Of a stretch of DNA of 7,721 bases, positions 1 to 7,566 are shown piece after piece; the stretch's first letter is position 1, and the number at the start of each line of letters is the position of its first letter. A model generated the notes under the pieces. That model was not told where the DNA came from, did not search any database, and saw only the letters and a program-made list of their open reading frames with translations. Source of the DNA: a virus (taxonomy: Duplodnaviria > Heunggongvirae > Uroviricota > Caudoviricetes); IMG/VR virus record IMGVR_UViG_3300039313_000002; one strand, given 5' to 3'. A program made the translations under genes and the position numbers.

Positions 1-1704
1 CACCGCGCCACAATCAGGGCAGTTGCCGCCGCCGGTCTGACCGCAGGCGGTGCAGACTTTTTCCACTTCCTGTTGCGCTACTGGTTCAGGCTGTTTCGTT
101 ACTGGCTCGTTTTGTAACGCATTTGGACTGTTTTGTTCCGCTTTTTGGTAGTTCCGTTCCGATTCATGCTGGTTCTGGTTCACAGAATCGCGGGTCTGGA
201 TCCCCTTAACCCATTTCGGATCATTCGGGTCACTAATCCCTTCAACAAATTCACCACGTGATGCAGCAAGCAACTTATCAGCGTCAGGCTGGCTGATATT
301 GGCTGCCTGCATAATTTTGTTTACTTCGTCAGCGGTAACTTTTATCGGCTCTGGTTGTTCTGAATCTTCAGCGGTATCTACATTTTGCGGTAAGCCCGTG
401 TATGTGCCATTTTTTCGGGCAAAATATTCTTCTTTTGTGATTTCAGTGGCGCCAGCAGCCAGTGCCTTATCCAGACCAGAAAGTTTGTTTGCGCGACCGT
501 ATTTTTCTCCGTCCTTATCTGCGAAGAGGAAATAGAACGGCCCCTCACGCTCTACAGATGGTTCAGCTTCCGGCGCGGTTTCATTTTTTGGGATATCAGA
601 TACCTCAGTTTCCACTGCATCAGTTTGTGTTTCTGATGACTGGAGAACATCAACAGTGCCCAGGTCTGTTTCTTCATTCTCAAACACGCCCTTTGTCGTC
701 AGGTATTCGCAGATATATTTGTTCAGTGCTACGGGATCTTTGTGAATGTCGATCGGACGCTCACGGACAAGGCCAAAAATAGTCTGGCGGTCGTAGCGAA
801 GGGCATCAGGCTGTTTGCGCATTGATGCCGAGATACGCTTCCAGTCTTCGCGGTCGTTGTCGATAACTTCATTTTTTGCCCAGCGATGGATGCTGCCATC
901 AATGTTTCCGGCATCCACATCACCAGGCCAGAGAGCGTAGGCCAGTTCGTCATCCAGTGTTTTCCATGTCTGCTTGTATTCGCGATGGATGGCAGCAATG
1001 ACCGGGCTGATTTTTCCTGTTGAATTTTCAGTGTACTGTTGATTGGCTCTGGCGCGGGCGAGATCAACAACAGACGTGTATTTTCCGGTTTCCTTGCGTT
1101 CACCTTCGCGACGTTTTTTCCAGATGCGCATCTCTGCCTGAATTTCGGGCCATTTAGCACCAGGAATACATTTATGCTTAACCCACCCAATGGCGTGCAA
1201 CTTAAGCTCCGGATACATGGCGTTAACTTCTGGCATTTTCATCAACGCTTCAACGATATGTCCGTCGAATGTTGCCATGTCTTCCTGCAACAATTCCTGT
1301 GCGCTAATAACCATATCAACGGTGATGTTTTCACATGTGTCGAACTTAACCATGACAGCGTTCTGTACTTCAGGGGCCAGCTTGTCAAAAGTGACGTTCA
1401 TCGGATCGGATTCAGTCTCATTCGGGACAAAAGAAGCAGACTCCTCATCCCAGCGGTTTTCCTGCATATATTCAGCATCCCATGAATCGAGGGCAGGGCG
1501 GGGTATGCCAGGTTTATCCTCGCAGACAATAAATTTATAAGCGCAGTCCTGAGCAGCCGGATAATGTTCCAGGAATTGCCAGTGAAATTTTGCTCGAGCA
1601 CGGCGTTCGTCGCCAGCTTCAATGGCTGTGGCTACAGCCACAGCGCCTTCTTCCCTTGTTGCCAGTTCGTCAGGAATAGCGGCGCAAATAAAGACTTTAC
1701 TCAT
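1..1704 (-). CDS. Large early-left-operon protein, 5' partial in window (N-terminal 568 codons; continues beyond position 1); RecE-like (exodeoxyribonuclease VIII family) N-terminal region suggested by position and architecture
   Basis: ATG at 1704..1702 preceded by GAGG about 8 nt upstream. I translated the minus frame by hand across 1-1440 and 1441-1704 and found no stop. Acidic low-complexity linker stretches and a CxxC...CxxC segment at the window edge (plus 1-60). Large gene upstream of the repressor in the leftward operon, as for recE in Rac-type prophages. Product assignment is inference, not a search result. Confidence 0.6.
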   Translation of the reverse strand, partial: MSKVFICAAIPDELATREEGAVAVATAIEAGDERRARAKFHWQFLEHYPAAQDCAYKFIVCEDKPGIPRPALDSWDAEYMQENRWDEESASFVPNETESDPMNVTFDKLAPEVQNAVMVKFDTCENITVDMVISAQELLQEDMATFDGHIVEALMKMPEVNAMYPELKLHAIGWVKHKCIPGAKWPEIQAEMRIWKKRREGERKETGKYTSVVDLARARANQQYTENSTGKISPVIAAIHREYKQTWKTLDDELAYALWPGDVDAGNIDGSIHRWAKNEVIDNDREDWKRISASMRKQPDALRYDRQTIFGLVRERPIDIHKDPVALNKYICEYLTTKGVFENEETDLGTVDVLQSSETQTDAVETEVSDIPKNETAPEAEPSVEREGPFYFLFADKDGEKYGRANKLSGLDKALAAGATEITKEEYFARKNGTYTGLPQNVDTAEDSEQPEPIKVTADEVNKIMQAANISQPDADKLLAASRGEFVEGISDPNDPKWVKGIQTRDSVNQNQHESERNYQKAEQNSPNALQNEPVTKQPEPVAQQEVEKVCTACGQTGGGNCPDCGAV

Positions 1705-1797: not shown

Positions 1798-1989
1798 TTA
1801 AAGACCTGCCGAGATTTCGATATTATCCTGGTTAATAACTTTATCGACCGGGTAACAGTTACCGGGAATTTTCTGTTCGGTTGCTGCAGTCATACACTCC
1901 TGCATTGTCCTGTGAACACTGACTGCAATATCAACTGGCACTCCGGAAACAAGAAAAACTGTCAGAACAAGCGCAAATGCTGAATTCAT
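1798..1989 (-). CDS. Small protein (63 aa) with hydrophobic N-terminus (signal peptide or membrane anchor), two Cys in the C-terminal part
   Basis: ATG at 1989 with AAGGA upstream; start overlaps the stop of the upstream gene in an ATGA arrangement (translational coupling); N-terminus MNSAFALVLTVFLVSG is strongly hydrophobic. The track ORF 1798..2043 begins further upstream; the 1989 start is preferred on RBS grounds. Confidence 0.5.
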   Translation of the reverse strand: MNSAFALVLTVFLVSGVPVDIAVSVHRTMQECMTAATEQKIPGNCYPVDKVINQDNIEISAGL

Positions 1990-2174
1990 TGTGCACATCC
2001 TTTTGGCATCAGACGTAAACGAGCCAGCATTGAAACAATGCATATTTTATTTAATAGCTCCCGTTCTTGTTTTCTCTTGTTAATGGCATCTTCAGTAAAT
2101 ACAGGGTTACTGATAGTGACACCAATTTCAAAACAACCTTCAGACGTATTAACGTTTGGTAATAACGTTTTCAT
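1986..2174 (-). CDS. Small hypothetical protein (62 aa) of the leftward early operon
   Basis: ATG at 2174 preceded by GAGGA at about 7 nt spacing; stop overlaps the next start (ATGA). The track ORF 1986..2279 begins at an upstream GTG with no RBS. Confidence 0.5.
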   Translation of the reverse strand: MKTLLPNVNTSEGCFEIGVTISNPVFTEDAINKRKQERELLNKICIVSMLARLRLMPKGCAQ

Positions 2175-2344: not shown

Positions 2345-2388
2345 AAAACGGCGGCAGAGCAGTCACGGAGTAAAACTGATACCGCCAA
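2345..2388 (-). terminator. Candidate hairpin plus U-tract on the minus strand (possible internal attenuator/terminator of the leftward operon)
   Basis: Minus strand reads GGCGG-(26 nt loop with nested CAGT/ACTG)-GCCGCC followed by GTTTTTAAA. Long loop makes this a weak candidate. Confidence 0.2.
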
Positions 2389-2660
2389 ACGTCACCAGAA
2401 AATTGATAACAGAGGGCGTTGCAGCGGGGTTGTCACTTAAGCGTATGGTCAACCTGACAACCCGGTGTCCTCAACGGGGAAGGAATAACCCCGCCATACT
2501 TACCGCCGCGCCATTTTGCGGGTTGCCACAACCGGAAGCGCACGGTCGAATTAAATTTAACGACACCGTACAGTGAGACGAACTTCGCCGTGCGCTTTCG
2601 TGTTGTGTGCCTGCTTTTAACCACGTCAGGCGAGGTGGTATCCTTAAAATCACCACAGTT

Positions 2661-3236
2661 TTAAGGATTCATTAAGCAATGTCGCAACCACCAATAAATC
2701 CGCTTAAGAACATGAAAATTGATTACTGGTATAAAGCGCTTACAGTTGTTGGCGCTGCGTTGTTTGTCTTTAATGGAACGTCTTTTTTTGACAGATATCC
2801 CGTTGTTCCATTGGGTTTTTTGTCCTCCGGCATCTTTTTTATTGGTTTGGGGGAGTGGATTAATCACCCTCTCAAAGTGAGATTTATTGGCCCTGGAGTT
2901 TGGACTCGTGGATATAATCGTTCTTCGTGCGCACTCGGTATCATCTTCGACATACTTGGTTGTTTCCTGATTGTTACAGGAGTCGTCAAGTTCTTCTGAT
3001 GTAAAACCGCAAATGGGGCACGTAACGGGAATTTTGAAAAGCGTTTCTCCGGGTTCCAGAACAAAATTTTCTGCGGTCTGATTTTGCTTCTCATATTTGT
3101 GCTCCGCGTCATTGTGAGAGCACATTCTTATTCTGAGTGCCTGTTTAAACTCACTGAAGCTGAGAGCTTCTTCGCCTTCGGCAAGGCCTTCGAAGTATTC
3201 TTCGTAAGCCTTTTCCATGATTGTGTCGAAATCCAT
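2661..3236 (-). CDS. Acidic protein with CPICG zinc-ribbon-like motif; N-terminal ~80 aa look protein-like, C-terminal ~110 aa are K/R/N-rich and may be antisense read-through
   Basis: ATG at 3236 preceded by AGGTGAG; start is 1 nt after the TGA of the upstream 51-aa gene (TGAtATG coupling). No in-frame stop until 2661. The track ORF begins at 3278, but the 3236 start has the better RBS. Confidence 0.45.
   Translation of the reverse strand: MDFDTIMEKAYEEYFEGLAEGEEALSFSEFKQALRIRMCSHNDAEHKYEKQNQTAENFVLEPGETLFKIPVTCPICGFTSEELDDSCNNQETTKYVEDDTECARRTIISTSPNSRANKSHFERVINPLPQTNKKDAGGQKTQWNNGISVKKRRSIKDKQRSANNCKRFIPVINFHVLKRIYWWLRHCLMNP
2679..2999 (+). CDS. Candidate small membrane protein (106 aa, 2-3 predicted transmembrane helices), opposite orientation to the surrounding operon (moron-like)
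   Basis: ATG at 2679 with AAGGA about 11 nt upstream; hydrophobic stretches LTVVGAALFVF, VVPLGFLSSGIFFIGLG and ALGIIFDILGCFLIVTGVV. It lies entirely antisense to the 3' half of the minus ORF 2661..3236, so only one of the two readings may be real here. Confidence 0.4.
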   Translation: MSQPPINPLKNMKIDYWYKALTVVGAALFVFNGTSFFDRYPVVPLGFLSSGIFFIGLGEWINHPLKVRFIGPGVWTRGYNRSSCALGIIFDILGCFLIVTGVVKFF

Positions 3237-3237
3237 A

Positions 3238-3393
3238 TCACTCACCTGAGTTTCTTTCCAGCCAGCGACGGGCACCATTTTCGGTTTTAAACGTTTTGCT
3301 TTTGGTATACGTCATCGCGGTGAACGTGCCGTCCTGGTTGGGGAACACGCCACATACCAGAGATTCGCTGTTGCCAAGATCGATAGTATCCAT
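3238..3393 (-). CDS. Small hypothetical protein (51 aa), first gene of the leftward early operon
   Basis: ATG at 3393 preceded by GAGGT at about 5 nt spacing; immediately downstream of the OL-like operators; stop TGA at 3240..3238 abuts the next start. The track ORF begins at 3447. Confidence 0.5.
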   Translation of the reverse strand: MDTIDLGNSESLVCGVFPNQDGTFTAMTYTKSKTFKTENGARRWLERNSGE

Positions 3394-3472
3394 GCTGACC
3401 TCATTTCCCCTTAACGCCGGGGTAGCGGAACTGTTTGCTGAGAACACCGTGCGGTGTCTTGATGGAAAGTAA

Positions 3473-3529
3473 TTTAGAATAACCTAACATGAGAGGCAAG
3501 TGTTTTTTGTTAGATTGGTCTAACAAAAA
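3473..3529. promoter_or_regulatory. OL-like operator region: perfect palindrome TGTTAGA-ttgg-TCTAACA (3508-3525, arms extendable to 3504-3529) plus a weaker copy TTTAGA-ataa-CCTAAC (3473-3488)
   Basis: Inverted repeats read directly from the sequence. The 18-bp site is identical in half-sites and spacer length to the site at 4019-4036 on the other side of the repressor gene. A leftward promoter is expected here but its -35/-10 could not be assigned confidently. Confidence 0.6.
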
Positions 3530-3561: not shown

Positions 3562-3969
3562 TTATTTTATTGATTTATTTTTACGCGCTTTAAGCATTTC
3601 TTCGAAGAGTTTGTTGAAGTTTTCTACTCTTGCGCGCATTTCAGACAGCAAGGCTTCCTGCTCGGAAGATGGAAGAGCATCGAATAATTCGATCAATTCT
3701 TTGTGGTTGGGAGTTAGCTCTGTTTCCACATGAAGTTCTTGTGCAGGCACTGGTGCCTTGTCTTCGTCACCAAACATTAGCCATGTAGGTGAGCACTTCA
3801 GAGCATCCGCTAAAGCAAACAATCGTTTTCCGACTGGCTGGGTTTCGTCTCTTTCCCATTGTGAAATTGTGACGTGAGCAACTCCAGCGAGGCGCGCAGC
3901 TTCTCGTTGTGTTAAGCGTAATTCTTTTCGTCGCGCCAGAACTCGCTGGCCTAGGGTTCTTGTATCCAT
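3562..3969 (-). CDS. Prophage repressor, DicA/CI-like HTH (XRE family), 135 aa
   Basis: HTH segment LTQREAARLAGVAHVTISQWER, followed by FALADALKCSPTWLMFGDEDK and a C-terminal EMRARVENFNKLFEEMLKAR, which I recognise from memory as the DicA-type repressor pattern. Divergent from a Cro-like gene and flanked by palindromic operators. Weak SD, possibly translated from a short or leaderless transcript. Confidence 0.85.
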   Translation of the reverse strand: MDTRTLGQRVLARRKELRLTQREAARLAGVAHVTISQWERDETQPVGKRLFALADALKCSPTWLMFGDEDKAPVPAQELHVETELTPNHKELIELFDALPSSEQEALLSEMRARVENFNKLFEEMLKARKNKSIK

Positions 3970-6387: not shown

Positions 6388-7566
6388 TTAAGTCTGAGCC
6401 TCACTCTCTTGGCCATAAGTGGCTTGCCAGTATCTCGCCGTAGGGTTCATTAGAATGTGCAATACAAGCCACCATGCAAAAATGCAGGGAGGTTGATTGT
6501 AGTAACCGGCAGGCACATATCCGTGAGCTAGTTGATTTCGTAAATCACCATAGATTTTATCTACCAGTAAGGCCTGAAGATTGCCAATTATGTCTACGCC
6601 GAAAGCTTCAATAATCAGTGGATTATCTAGTAATCCCTTGAGTCCATTTCGCTCTTGCGAACCGTCCCCGTGAAGCTGCGATGGTTCCTCACCTTTAATT
6701 TTAGCCACATATCTCAGACTATTTTCGAGCTGGGGAATCAACACGTGGCATGCCGTCATAAAATCTCCATTGAAACCGCAAACCATACCCTTGATGAAAA
6801 ACTCTTCATGCCCAAACGGGATGAAGGGATGATTGATGAACATATCGCGAAAAAACGCCTCCGAGATTGGATATTTCATTGTGATCTCATCTGTAGCAGG
6901 AATAATTTGCCCAGCTACTGCCAACTCATGGTCGATACGCATTCTCGTCATCATTATGGGCCAAATAACTGCCCCATTTGCATCATCAATCCCCAATCCT
7001 GCGGGTATGCGAGCAAGTGTCATTCCCTCATGATCAATATGTGTTGATCCAAACATCCAAGCTATGCTGTTGGCCTTTTGTTCTATTGCTTGAGCCTTAA
7101 GTCTCTCAATGCTGGTTGGCCGACAGACCAGCATCGCAAGTCTGAAAACCATATCAAACAAATCTCTTCCGACTACCCGACTCTTGGCTTGATGGACAAT
7201 CTCACTAATATCTTGAGGGGGAGACTGAAGGATAGACATCTGGTGACGGGATTCGATTTGGTAATCACGCATTTCTTCATACAGCGCAAGACGTTCTATT
7301 CGGGTTCCTGGAATATTAGCCAGTGCTTCAATAGCATTCTGCATGCAGGCTGCCGAAATCATACCGCCATCTTGGAATTTTGACTCTTCCAGATGTGTAT
7401 CGGCAAGAAGCCGCCAGAATTCAAACTGTGTATCTCTGTCACAGCACCTATTCGCAATCGGGATTGCGGTTTTACAGGCATCGACGGCAAATGAAAATAA
7501 TTTTTGAGCCAGATAGTTTTTTGTCAGAAACAGGAGTTCCTGGGCAATAAAAGATGGCTCACTCAC
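6388..7566 (-). CDS. Hypothetical 392-aa protein with C-terminal R-x4-H (HEPN-like) motif; candidate abortive-infection / defence or toxin cargo (moron)
   Basis: Long uninterrupted minus-strand ORF convergent with the phage rightward operon. First in-frame start is GTG at 7566 with no obvious SD; the next ATG is at codon 69, so the start is uncertain. Motif LRNQLAHG at residues 342-349 (plus 6523-6540) matches the RNxxxH signature of HEPN-type RNases; a second R-x4-H (RMRIDH) lies at residues 208-213. All three minus frames hit stops within 7690-7721, so the gene does not extend out of the window. Confidence 0.7.
   Translation of the reverse strand: MSEPSFIAQELLFLTKNYLAQKLFSFAVDACKTAIPIANRCCDRDTQFEFWRLLADTHLEESKFQDGGMISAACMQNAIEALANIPGTRIERLALYEEMRDYQIESRHQMSILQSPPQDISEIVHQAKSRVVGRDLFDMVFRLAMLVCRPTSIERLKAQAIEQKANSIAWMFGSTHIDHEGMTLARIPAGLGIDDANGAVIWPIMMTRMRIDHELAVAGQIIPATDEITMKYPISEAFFRDMFINHPFIPFGHEEFFIKGMVCGFNGDFMTACHVLIPQLENSLRYVAKIKGEEPSQLHGDGSQERNGLKGLLDNPLIIEAFGVDIIGNLQALLVDKIYGDLRNQLAHGYVPAGYYNQPPCIFAWWLVLHILMNPTARYWQATYGQESEAQT

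Follow-up and report, generated by a model that had tools for sequence, protein, structure and literature searches.

A small membrane-protein gene within a stop-free antisense partner frame in the early region of lambdoid prophages

Here we describe a pair of overlapping antisense genes in a 7,721-nt stretch of viral DNA (IMG/VR record IMGVR_UViG_3300039313_000002; the whole stretch is called the window below), which is the immunity/early region of a Qin/Rac-like lambdoid prophage of Escherichia coli. Comparative analysis shows that both strands carry genuine genes: the plus strand one for a small three-helix membrane protein, which is under purifying selection, and the minus strand one for an early-operon protein, called the partner in the following, whose N-terminal motif is also under purifying selection. 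Over its last ~110 codons, the partner gene reads the entire membrane-protein gene in antisense, codon for codon. Across diverged alleles, the amino-acid sequence of this antisense tail drifts freely, while stop codons are purged from it. The best overall explanation, to which we assign a probability of about 0.6, is that temperate enterobacterial phages carry a conserved cassette of two genes, in which the antisense partner is kept free of stops and the two genes are probably expressed in alternation.

The original prediction, made from the window alone, had already reported both open reading frames (ORFs), and both exist as described: a plus ORF of 106 amino acids (aa) at 2679-2999 with its own AAGGA, and a minus ORF extending to 2661. 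It had offered two explanations, either an accessory gene embedded in antisense or a minus gene that is a fused or read-through form. This either/or proved too narrow, since both are true. A self-contained membrane-protein gene does lie inside the leftward early operon, as its homologues and its ratio of nonsynonymous to synonymous substitution rates (dN/dS) indicate, and the minus gene of the window is indeed fused, carrying a YdfB N-terminus (phrog_2061, E 3.6e-30; "missing C-terminus" in the PGAP annotation) next to a replacement at 2619-3135. The read-through, in turn, is conserved and selected, not accidental.

Evidence for a gene on each strand

The plus protein belongs to a widespread family. 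About 60 homologues of 100-110 aa, with identities down to 34%, were found in Yersinia, Herminiimonas, Reinekea and many metagenomes, and genome scans located the family also in Proteobacteria, Desulfobacterota, Nitrospirales and other groups. When 1.84 billion representatives were searched with a profile, 478 clusters (50% identity) were obtained at E<=1e-3. Two motifs are invariant in the family, DYWYKA and GLGEWINHP (family-wide form G.GEW.NHP). Between diverged prophage alleles, the plus gene contains no insertions or deletions, and its differences fall as expected of a protein-coding frame (for example 11, 7 and 36 at codon positions 1, 2 and 3), giving a dN/dS of 0.09-0.20; the clade of phage mEp390 shows the same pattern. 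The AlphaFold2 model has helices at residues 17-32, 42-62 and 85-105, with a predicted local distance difference test score (pLDDT) of 82.5.

Scans of Pfam, PHROGs, NCBIfam and PADLOC gave no family match for the plus protein, and a Foldseek search of its model against viral and PDB libraries returned nothing below E 0.1 and generic helical bundles only. A holin identity was considered and rejected: no holin family matched, the best "Holin" hit in Foldseek had an E-value of 0.34, and the gene is located in the immunity/early region, not in the lysis cassette. The plus protein thus seems to represent an undescribed and unannotated membrane-protein family.

Prodigal-style and Pharokka annotations imply the opposite, namely that the minus ORF is the sole gene and the 106-aa plus ORF its shadow. 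It is true that the longer ORF is the one usually called (it is a coding sequence in phage HannyBb and gp39 in mEp390, and its cluster P0061 holds 1798 member sequences), and that it has a PHROG entry, phrog_35040, which it matches over its full length, whereas the plus ORF has none. However, this reading is already refuted and we give it practically no credence: the plus frame is under purifying selection, with position-3 substitutions and a dN/dS of 0.1-0.2, its invariant motifs are conserved across phyla, and the plus family occurs in many genomes in which the antisense frame carries 3-17 stops.

The evidence for the minus gene comes from its part outside the overlap. The minus ORF of every lineage begins at a start codon of its own, with a Shine-Dalgarno sequence, 35-50 codons outside the overlap. 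A short motif lies just past the plus stop (consensus in the clade of the window PGE..F.IP..CP[IV]CGF) and was found in alleles whose plus proteins are 84%, 58%, 51% and 49% identical to that of the window, the last of these (L179) having a variant form. Its differences fall at minus codon position 3 (Pro CCC/CCA/CCG/CCT, Gly GGT/GGA, Cys TGC/TGT), and the ratio of the proportions of nonsynonymous and synonymous differences (pN/pS) is 0.3-0.5. In the mEp390 clade, the N-terminal segment reads L..L...PGSV.ID....V.L.GW.L, with 3, 5 and 15 differences at minus positions 1, 2 and 3 and a pS of 0.7-0.8 against a pN of 0.13-0.21 (pN/pS ~0.2). Both types of motif, or the CPxCG type, were present in L154, L173 and L005 (Roseateles), and the PG...G[WF] that is invariant in the alignment argues that the two N-terminal types are homologous. 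When the partner alignment was used as a profile, the N-terminal domain never turned up on its own: all matches were ORFs with an antisense tail (135-271 aa), and these matches were confined to Enterobacterales (E. coli, Yersinia, Citrobacter, Pantoea).

The minus ORF had originally been labelled a zinc ribbon, a label that did not hold up. Its best Pfam match was RUBY_RBDX at E 0.15 (12 bits versus a cut-off of 26.5). A single CPxCG knuckle is kept and no second Cys/His pair: the would-be second ligands (C53/H55 and a Cys at +11) are not kept in L031 or L035, and the homologous segment of the mEp390 clade, PGSV.ID..V.L.GW, has no Cys at all.

Taken together, these data confirm, at the level of comparative sequence analysis, that both overlapping frames are real and form an unusually clean antisense gene pair. 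The strand under selection changes precisely where the plus gene ends.

An open frame with a drifting sequence

The start positions of the plus frame (2679) and the end of the minus frame (2661) are both 0 modulo 3, so the two ORFs use identical triplets, and a minus-frame stop is therefore possible only through a TTA, CTA or TCA codon of the plus gene. There is none in the window. A codon-aligned antisense frame is a notorious source of spurious "shadow" ORFs, and the minus ORF might be open merely for want of these three codons, in which case only the plus gene would matter and the tail would be meaningless read-through. This register is the one best known for long spurious ORFs, the tail shows no sequence conservation and has a disordered predicted structure, and PGAP calls no gene over it, all of which would suit such an explanation. 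The distribution of stops argues otherwise. Enterobacterial alleles with plus identities of 100, 88, 84, 58, 51 (Yersinia) and 49% have zero antisense stops at a GC content of 0.40-0.45, whereas homologues elsewhere typically have 2-12, and up to 17, at a GC content of 0.37-0.47. The neighbouring prophage genes use TTA/CTA for 26% of their Leu codons and TCA for 24% of their Ser codons, which argues against the avoidance being a general feature of codon usage in these phages; this usage predicts about 4 antisense stops per allele and a probability of ~0.01 per lineage of having none. In the plus genes, A occupies 15-26% of the other four-fold sites, but never the third position of CTN, TCN or TTR codons.

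We pooled these observations in a test on 14 phage representatives with less than 80% mutual identity, among which synonymous sites are saturated, taking CTN, TCN and TTR as the stop-risk codons. The results showed that 0/170 stop-risk codons end in A, compared with 96/499 of the other four-fold sites (0% versus 19%; Fisher p = 5.6e-14), while 25 other homologues displayed no avoidance (97/391 versus 200/871). A check of codon usage and synonymous constraint across homologues had been suggested in the original prediction, and we take the pooled outcome as decisive. Those of the other homologues whose gene context was checked are co-directional with their neighbours; orientation was taken from annotated records and stored gene calls, the ORF-length heuristic for neighbour orientation being noisy. 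General avoidance of rare codons was rejected as a cause, as AGA, ATA and GGA are used in the gene and A is common at its other four-fold sites. Since at least 14 mutually diverged alleles keep the frame open, since homologues beyond the phage clades show no avoidance, and since each allele has a start codon, a Shine-Dalgarno sequence and a selected N-terminal motif, we regard a chance shadow as very improbable.

The sequence of the tail behaves quite differently from its openness. In close pairs, minus-frame dN/dS inside the overlap is 1.3-1.7, and between deep lineages the plus synonymous sites are saturated (pS ~0.7). The tail has an isoelectric point of 9.7 and a grand average of hydropathy of -1.09; it is basic and hydrophilic because a T-rich membrane-protein gene is read backwards. 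In the AlphaFold2 model of the partner (mean pLDDT 52), everything is disordered save a C-terminal helix. Protein-level selection is therefore visible on each ORF, through the dN/dS of the plus gene, the motif of the partner and the purged stops, but amino-acid constraint on both products within the overlap is not, given a minus dN/dS of at least 1 and saturated plus synonymous sites. Purged stops in a drifting sequence imply that ribosomes would have to read across the whole antisense stretch.

Alternatively, the pair could be a case of true dual coding, in which a sequence-specific antisense tail, for example its C-terminal amphipathic helix, is functional and stops are purged since the C-terminus is needed; as one possibility, the tail might act as an antidote or "escape" factor by binding and neutralising the membrane protein of the other strand. 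In favour of this, the two genes are always inherited together, even between deeply diverged lineages, the helix (residues 137-152, pLDDT ~90) is the sole confidently modelled element of the partner, and a test for additional synonymous constraint where the helix is encoded showed a modestly raised codon identity over the first 15 plus codons. There is also a precedent in phage P22, where one stretch of DNA encodes both the exclusion protein SieB and Esc, its in-frame escape product. Nevertheless, the minus-frame dN/dS and the saturated plus synonymous sites speak against a constrained tail, and the effect on codon identity at the 5' end is equally found in chromosomal homologues without a partner, hence it is uninformative. 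Moreover, a few alleles (L151, L172 and L174-176) in the leftward-operon position have a partner of 122-139 aa that still covers at least 85% of the plus gene and ends 5-18 codons inside it, without the helix; their antisense stops occur only within these first 5-18 codons of the plus gene. The end of the partner ORF varies among alleles generally, some being fused in frame to ydfC (245-271 aa), and the helix-less alleles together with these fusions indicate that the partner C-terminus is not fixed. On balance, we consider sequence-specific dual coding unlikely.

We also surveyed the integrity of the two frames in near-identical copies. In 95 such loci, a sample seeded with plus-protein peptides and hence biased to intact plus genes, most had both frames intact, 5 had a truncated minus ORF with an intact plus ORF, and 1 had a truncated plus ORF. 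Protein clusters showed sporadic frameshifts of either ORF in E. coli, as expected of cryptic prophages. The original prediction had envisaged that homologues might show one of the frames consistently interrupted; this was seen for neither strand, all diverged alleles having two intact frames and the breaks being sporadic and found in near-identical E. coli copies.

Genomic setting, origin and recurrence of the cassette

The coordinates of the pair and its neighbours are listed in Table 1. On the minus strand, the RefSeq copy of the identical locus and Rfam give the order DicA-like repressor, ydfA, ydfB pseudogene, ~1 kb without annotation, DicF, dicB, ydfD and a frameshifted exonuclease, and the ydfA ... 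dicF-dicB-ydfD arrangement matches that of K-12 Qin, whose dicBF operon is repressed by DicA (PMC5069750). Positions 2500-3500 have an identical copy in many RefSeq chromosomes, and at least 80% of this sequence is present in 792/5426 complete genomes. The culturable and apparently intact phage HannyBb (PP925841) has the same cassette, with 99.2% identity to window 2500-3500. The carriers thus comprise about 790 complete E. coli genomes as well as the culturable phages HannyBb and mEp390.

Table 1 Positions of the antisense pair and of neighbouring features in the window
Feature	Position	Strand	Remarks
Plus ORF (membrane protein)	2679..2999	+	106 aa, ATG start
Plus-gene Shine-Dalgarno sequence AAGGA	2664..2668	+	10 nt 5' of the ATG; kept in related alleles
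Putative plus-gene promoter	2616..2644	+	-35-like TTTAAC 2616-2621, 17-nt spacer, extended -10 TGgTATCCT 2636-2644
Minus (partner) ORF	3236 to 2661	-	191 aa from the ydfB start codon; 205 aa if the ATG at 3278 is used
Antisense-encoded partner tail	2664..2999	-	112 aa, stop-free, sequence not conserved
Conserved non-overlapping partner motif EPGETLFKIPVTCPICGFT	3000..3056	-	just past the plus stop
ydfB-derived N-terminus of the partner; ydfB pseudogene in PGAP	3135..3236	-	translationally coupled to ydfA; PGAP "protein YdfB, incomplete, missing C-terminus"
Mosaic cassette	2619..3135		replaces the ydfB C-terminus and ydfC of K-12 Qin; blastn against NC_000913
ydfA (DUF1391)	3238..3393	-	Pfam PF07151, E 8.8e-28, and RefSeq; upstream gene of the early leftward operon
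DicA-like repressor	3562..3969	-	RefSeq annotation, K-12 Qin layout, PMC5069750; early leftward promoter between repressor and ydfA
DicF small RNA	2349..2400	-	Rfam RF00039, 72.5 bits; downstream, same operon
dicB	1986-2174	-	RefSeq annotation of the identical locus

The strong ribosome-binding site and the coupling that had been noted for the minus ORF are both present. The better of its two possible starts is the ATG at 3236, which is preceded by the Shine-Dalgarno sequence AGGTGA and overlaps the ydfA stop as TGAtATG. By its sequence matches, only the N-terminus of the minus ORF in the window (first 34-48 aa) would be YdfB: residues 1-48 of the 205-aa form match profile positions 1-46 of 54 in phrog_2061 (E 3.6e-30), and homology to K-12 Qin DNA stops at 3136 (blastn against the Qin region of NC_000913). 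The cassette was recombined into a Qin-like dicBF operon, and the partner ORF was thereby fused to the ydfB N-terminus. In other prophages, the cassette is present without ydfA or ydfB. In some loci (L131, L133; proteins P0067, P0069, P0071) lacking both of these genes, the partner starts at the ydfA ribosome-binding site and continues in frame into ydfC, giving 245-271 aa.

The antisense placement in an early operon recurs. It was found in the window and its RefSeq copies, in phage HannyBb and in four other prophage backgrounds, and phage mEp390 has a plus homologue of 39% identity lying antisense between cro and cII, i.e., in the rightward operon. There, the covering antisense ORF is annotated as gp39 (151 aa) and is separated from cro by 37 nt and from cII by 16 nt. 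Contigs of IMG/VR provided many alleles of the mEp390 clade, with identities from 100% down to 45%, and the covering frame is open in nearly all of them.

The plus gene may well be transcribed from a promoter of its own (Table 1). The putative element sits 35-60 nt upstream of the plus start and is kept in all leftward-operon alleles, from E. coli to Yersinia, and its -10 varies in the pattern TAnnnT, as expected of a -10 hexamer. An inverted repeat, GCCTG (2609-2613)-N13-CAGGC (2627-2631), overlaps the -35 and the spacer and is likewise kept in all leftward-operon alleles, the L179 copy being a compensatory variant (GCCGGG..CCCGGC). The repeat might serve as an operator or form a small hairpin. 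When the conserved upstream element and the sequence past the plus stop were folded as RNA, the z-scores were -0.9 to +1.6, and neither had significant structure.

Several further observations concern the surroundings of the pair or of its homologues. The recE-like 3'-5' exonuclease gene and xisR are frameshifted pseudogenes in the identical RefSeq locus (window 1-1704 and L001 948-3705), which indicates that the window copy is a decaying cryptic prophage. Two alternative small minus ORFs lie in the dicF leader, 2433-2624 (phrog_8854, E 5e-28) and 2471-2656 (a coding sequence in HannyBb), and PGAP annotates neither. At window 6388-7566 (minus strand), a large ORF on the opposite strand follows the replication and DUF977 genes; its counterpart in a related RefSeq locus is annotated DUF4209, and it may be another accessory or defence gene. 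In two IMG/VR prophage contigs (L172 and L174), a tRNA-Arg(tct) gene at 2773-2849 (minus strand) lies on the operon strand ~150 nt upstream of the membrane-protein gene. The Arcobacter sp. Pygsuia-1 chromosome has three identical copies of the plus homologue at three sites (L013, L014, L015), which suggests carriage by a repeated mobile element. Outside phages, in Reinekea and metagenome contigs (L043-L046), the homologue is part of co-directional runs of small ORFs (~100-150 aa, no Pfam match) that resemble arrays of small accessory or immunity-like genes.

Possible expression programme and known systems

We infer that expression of the two genes is separated in time. The lysogen would transcribe the membrane-protein gene from the extended -10 promoter of that gene, with the early operon held off by the DicA-like repressor. 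Upon derepression, early transcription with coupled translation would cross the membrane-protein gene head-on and produce the partner protein, and this head-on transcription might silence the membrane-protein gene via transcriptional or antisense interference. Two reasons for keeping the frame open are conceivable. First, if the antisense stretch were left untranslated, the early transcript would be uncoupled and open to Rho/NusG polarity or to base-pairing with the sense mRNA, and this would starve the downstream genes, which are DicF and DicB in the window and cII and the replication genes in mEp390. Second, the partner protein may depend on having a long, hydrophilic and disordered tail, whatever its sequence, which the antisense of a membrane-protein gene would supply automatically. 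One or both of these reasons may apply, and the evidence fits each equally well. A translation shield would agree with selection that acts on stops only and tolerates variable ORF ends and in-frame fusions, with the tight packing of cro, partner and cII in mEp390, and with the contrast to Rac, where the sieB slot has many antisense stops and kilR is silenced by Rho/NusG.

Other observations weigh against this explanation or parts of it. A consensus promoter scan missed the putative plus promoter and called no promoter, so that its assignment comes from conservation only; the single weak terminator-like site in the scan lies at 3176-3195 on the plus strand, and neither the scan nor RNA folding detected an intrinsic terminator after the plus gene. 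Minus-strand RNA over the overlap has no consistent Rho-loading C>G signature (C/G ratio 0.83-1.29). In leftward-operon alleles, the RNA seems to be untranslated for 280-480 nt past the partner stop, and the dicBF operon naturally has a long untranslated dicF leader (PMC5069750); with such stretches past the partner, polarity avoidance alone is not compelling in the window. A pure ribosome shield would also leave the protein-level conservation of the N-terminal partner motif unexplained. Lastly, alleles with a broken minus and an intact plus ORF occur naturally (the 5/95 loci above and L039), which means that the requirement for an open frame is not absolute, at least in cryptic prophages.

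As for what the membrane protein does, it is a candidate for exclusion or abortive infection, being possibly a lysogen-expressed accessory gene ("moron") of the sieB type. The roles in superinfection exclusion or lysis that had been surmised from the window remain a guess drawn from position, namely the sieB slot as in Rac. A further elaboration, which we hold to be a long shot, would have the cassette encode an exclusion or abortive-infection toxin on one strand of a 321-bp stretch and its antidote on the other. In lysogens, the membrane protein would then kill or block infection, and the early partner would let the resident phage escape, acting perhaps both as antisense mRNA and as a protein through its conserved N-terminal motif, disordered tail and C-terminal helix. 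If so, the full overlap would make the pair genetically inseparable, an opposite-strand counterpart of SieB/Esc.

Returning to the two-gene cassette that we favour, its closest analogue, by position and orientation only and without homology, is sieB, a gene of Rac, lambda and P22. In Rac as in the window, a small prophage membrane-protein gene occupies the same map position, antisense to the early leftward operon, and the Rac order racR-ydaG-ydaF-sieB(+)-kilR matches that of the window, ydaF encoding a DUF1391 protein like ydfA. The proteins differ, SieB having 162 aa as compared with 106 aa, and no SieB family was among the Pfam or PHROG matches of the plus protein at E<=1. The antisense side differs as well: the three antisense frames of Rac sieB contain 7, 9 and 19 stops, and ydaF ends at the sieB 3' end (in K-12 Rac, L048 3172-3660, sieB overlaps the ydaF 3' end by 4 nt). 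These stops imply that the Rac early transcript must cross ~490 nt untranslated before kilS and kilR, which fits the report that kilR stays silent unless Rho/NusG termination is weakened (PMC5793797). Qin itself shares the operon context and the YdfB-like start of the minus ORF (its first 34-48 residues) with the window, but keeps the ydfB C-terminus and ydfC, which the 2619-3135 cassette replaces in the window.

The cassette also recalls type I toxin-antitoxin loci such as hok/sok and tisB/istR, in which a small hydrophobic membrane-protein gene faces a convergent, fully complementary transcript. Here, however, the complementary RNA would be a translated early-operon mRNA, and the membrane protein has 106 aa and three helices. 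At a permissive threshold, Rfam detected DicF only and no RNA family over the cassette, and PADLOC gave no defence-system match. Overprinted viral genes offer another parallel. Their newer product is often disordered, a pattern known from same-strand overlaps, and in the cassette too an old constrained frame is paired with a disordered, fast-evolving polypeptide joined to a short functional segment. The difference is that the cassette is antisense and codon-aligned and belongs to a double-stranded DNA temperate phage, in which genome compression is not an obvious driver.

Long antisense overlapping genes in bacteria and phages are contested, most candidates being short, young ORFs with expression data. 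In the present case, the covering frame has stayed free of stops across many diverged lineages and two distinct operons, and the embedded gene is old and widespread. Annotation misses or mishandles both proteins, as PGAP leaves ~1 kb empty and Prodigal-style callers take the longer, less constrained ORF, and neither protein has a Pfam family. The embedded gene adds a new small membrane-protein family, which in lambdoid prophages occupies the sieB slot or the cro-cII interval. Why an early operon would be translated across an antisense accessory gene, be it Rho/NusG polarity, RNA pairing or a cost-free disordered tail, is directly testable in the culturable phages.

Among described cases, the antisense genes of E. 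coli O157:H7 (ano, oloz0137/4542/5029; PMC5960689, PMC9927249) are alike in being opposite-strand coding pairs of which one member was missed by annotation, and our literature searches on described E. coli antisense overlapping genes found no account of the present locus. The O157:H7 overlapping genes are short, restricted to Escherichia/Shigella and backed mainly by expression and competition assays (PMC5960689, PMC9927249). The cassette differs in that the embedded gene is the old and widely distributed one and is overlapped over its full length (321 nt). The pair has been retained down to ~39% identity, and its support comes from evolution, through frame-specific selection and stop purging. 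Compared with these systems, what appears to be new here is strong comparative evidence for an antisense pair, together with two unannotated protein families.

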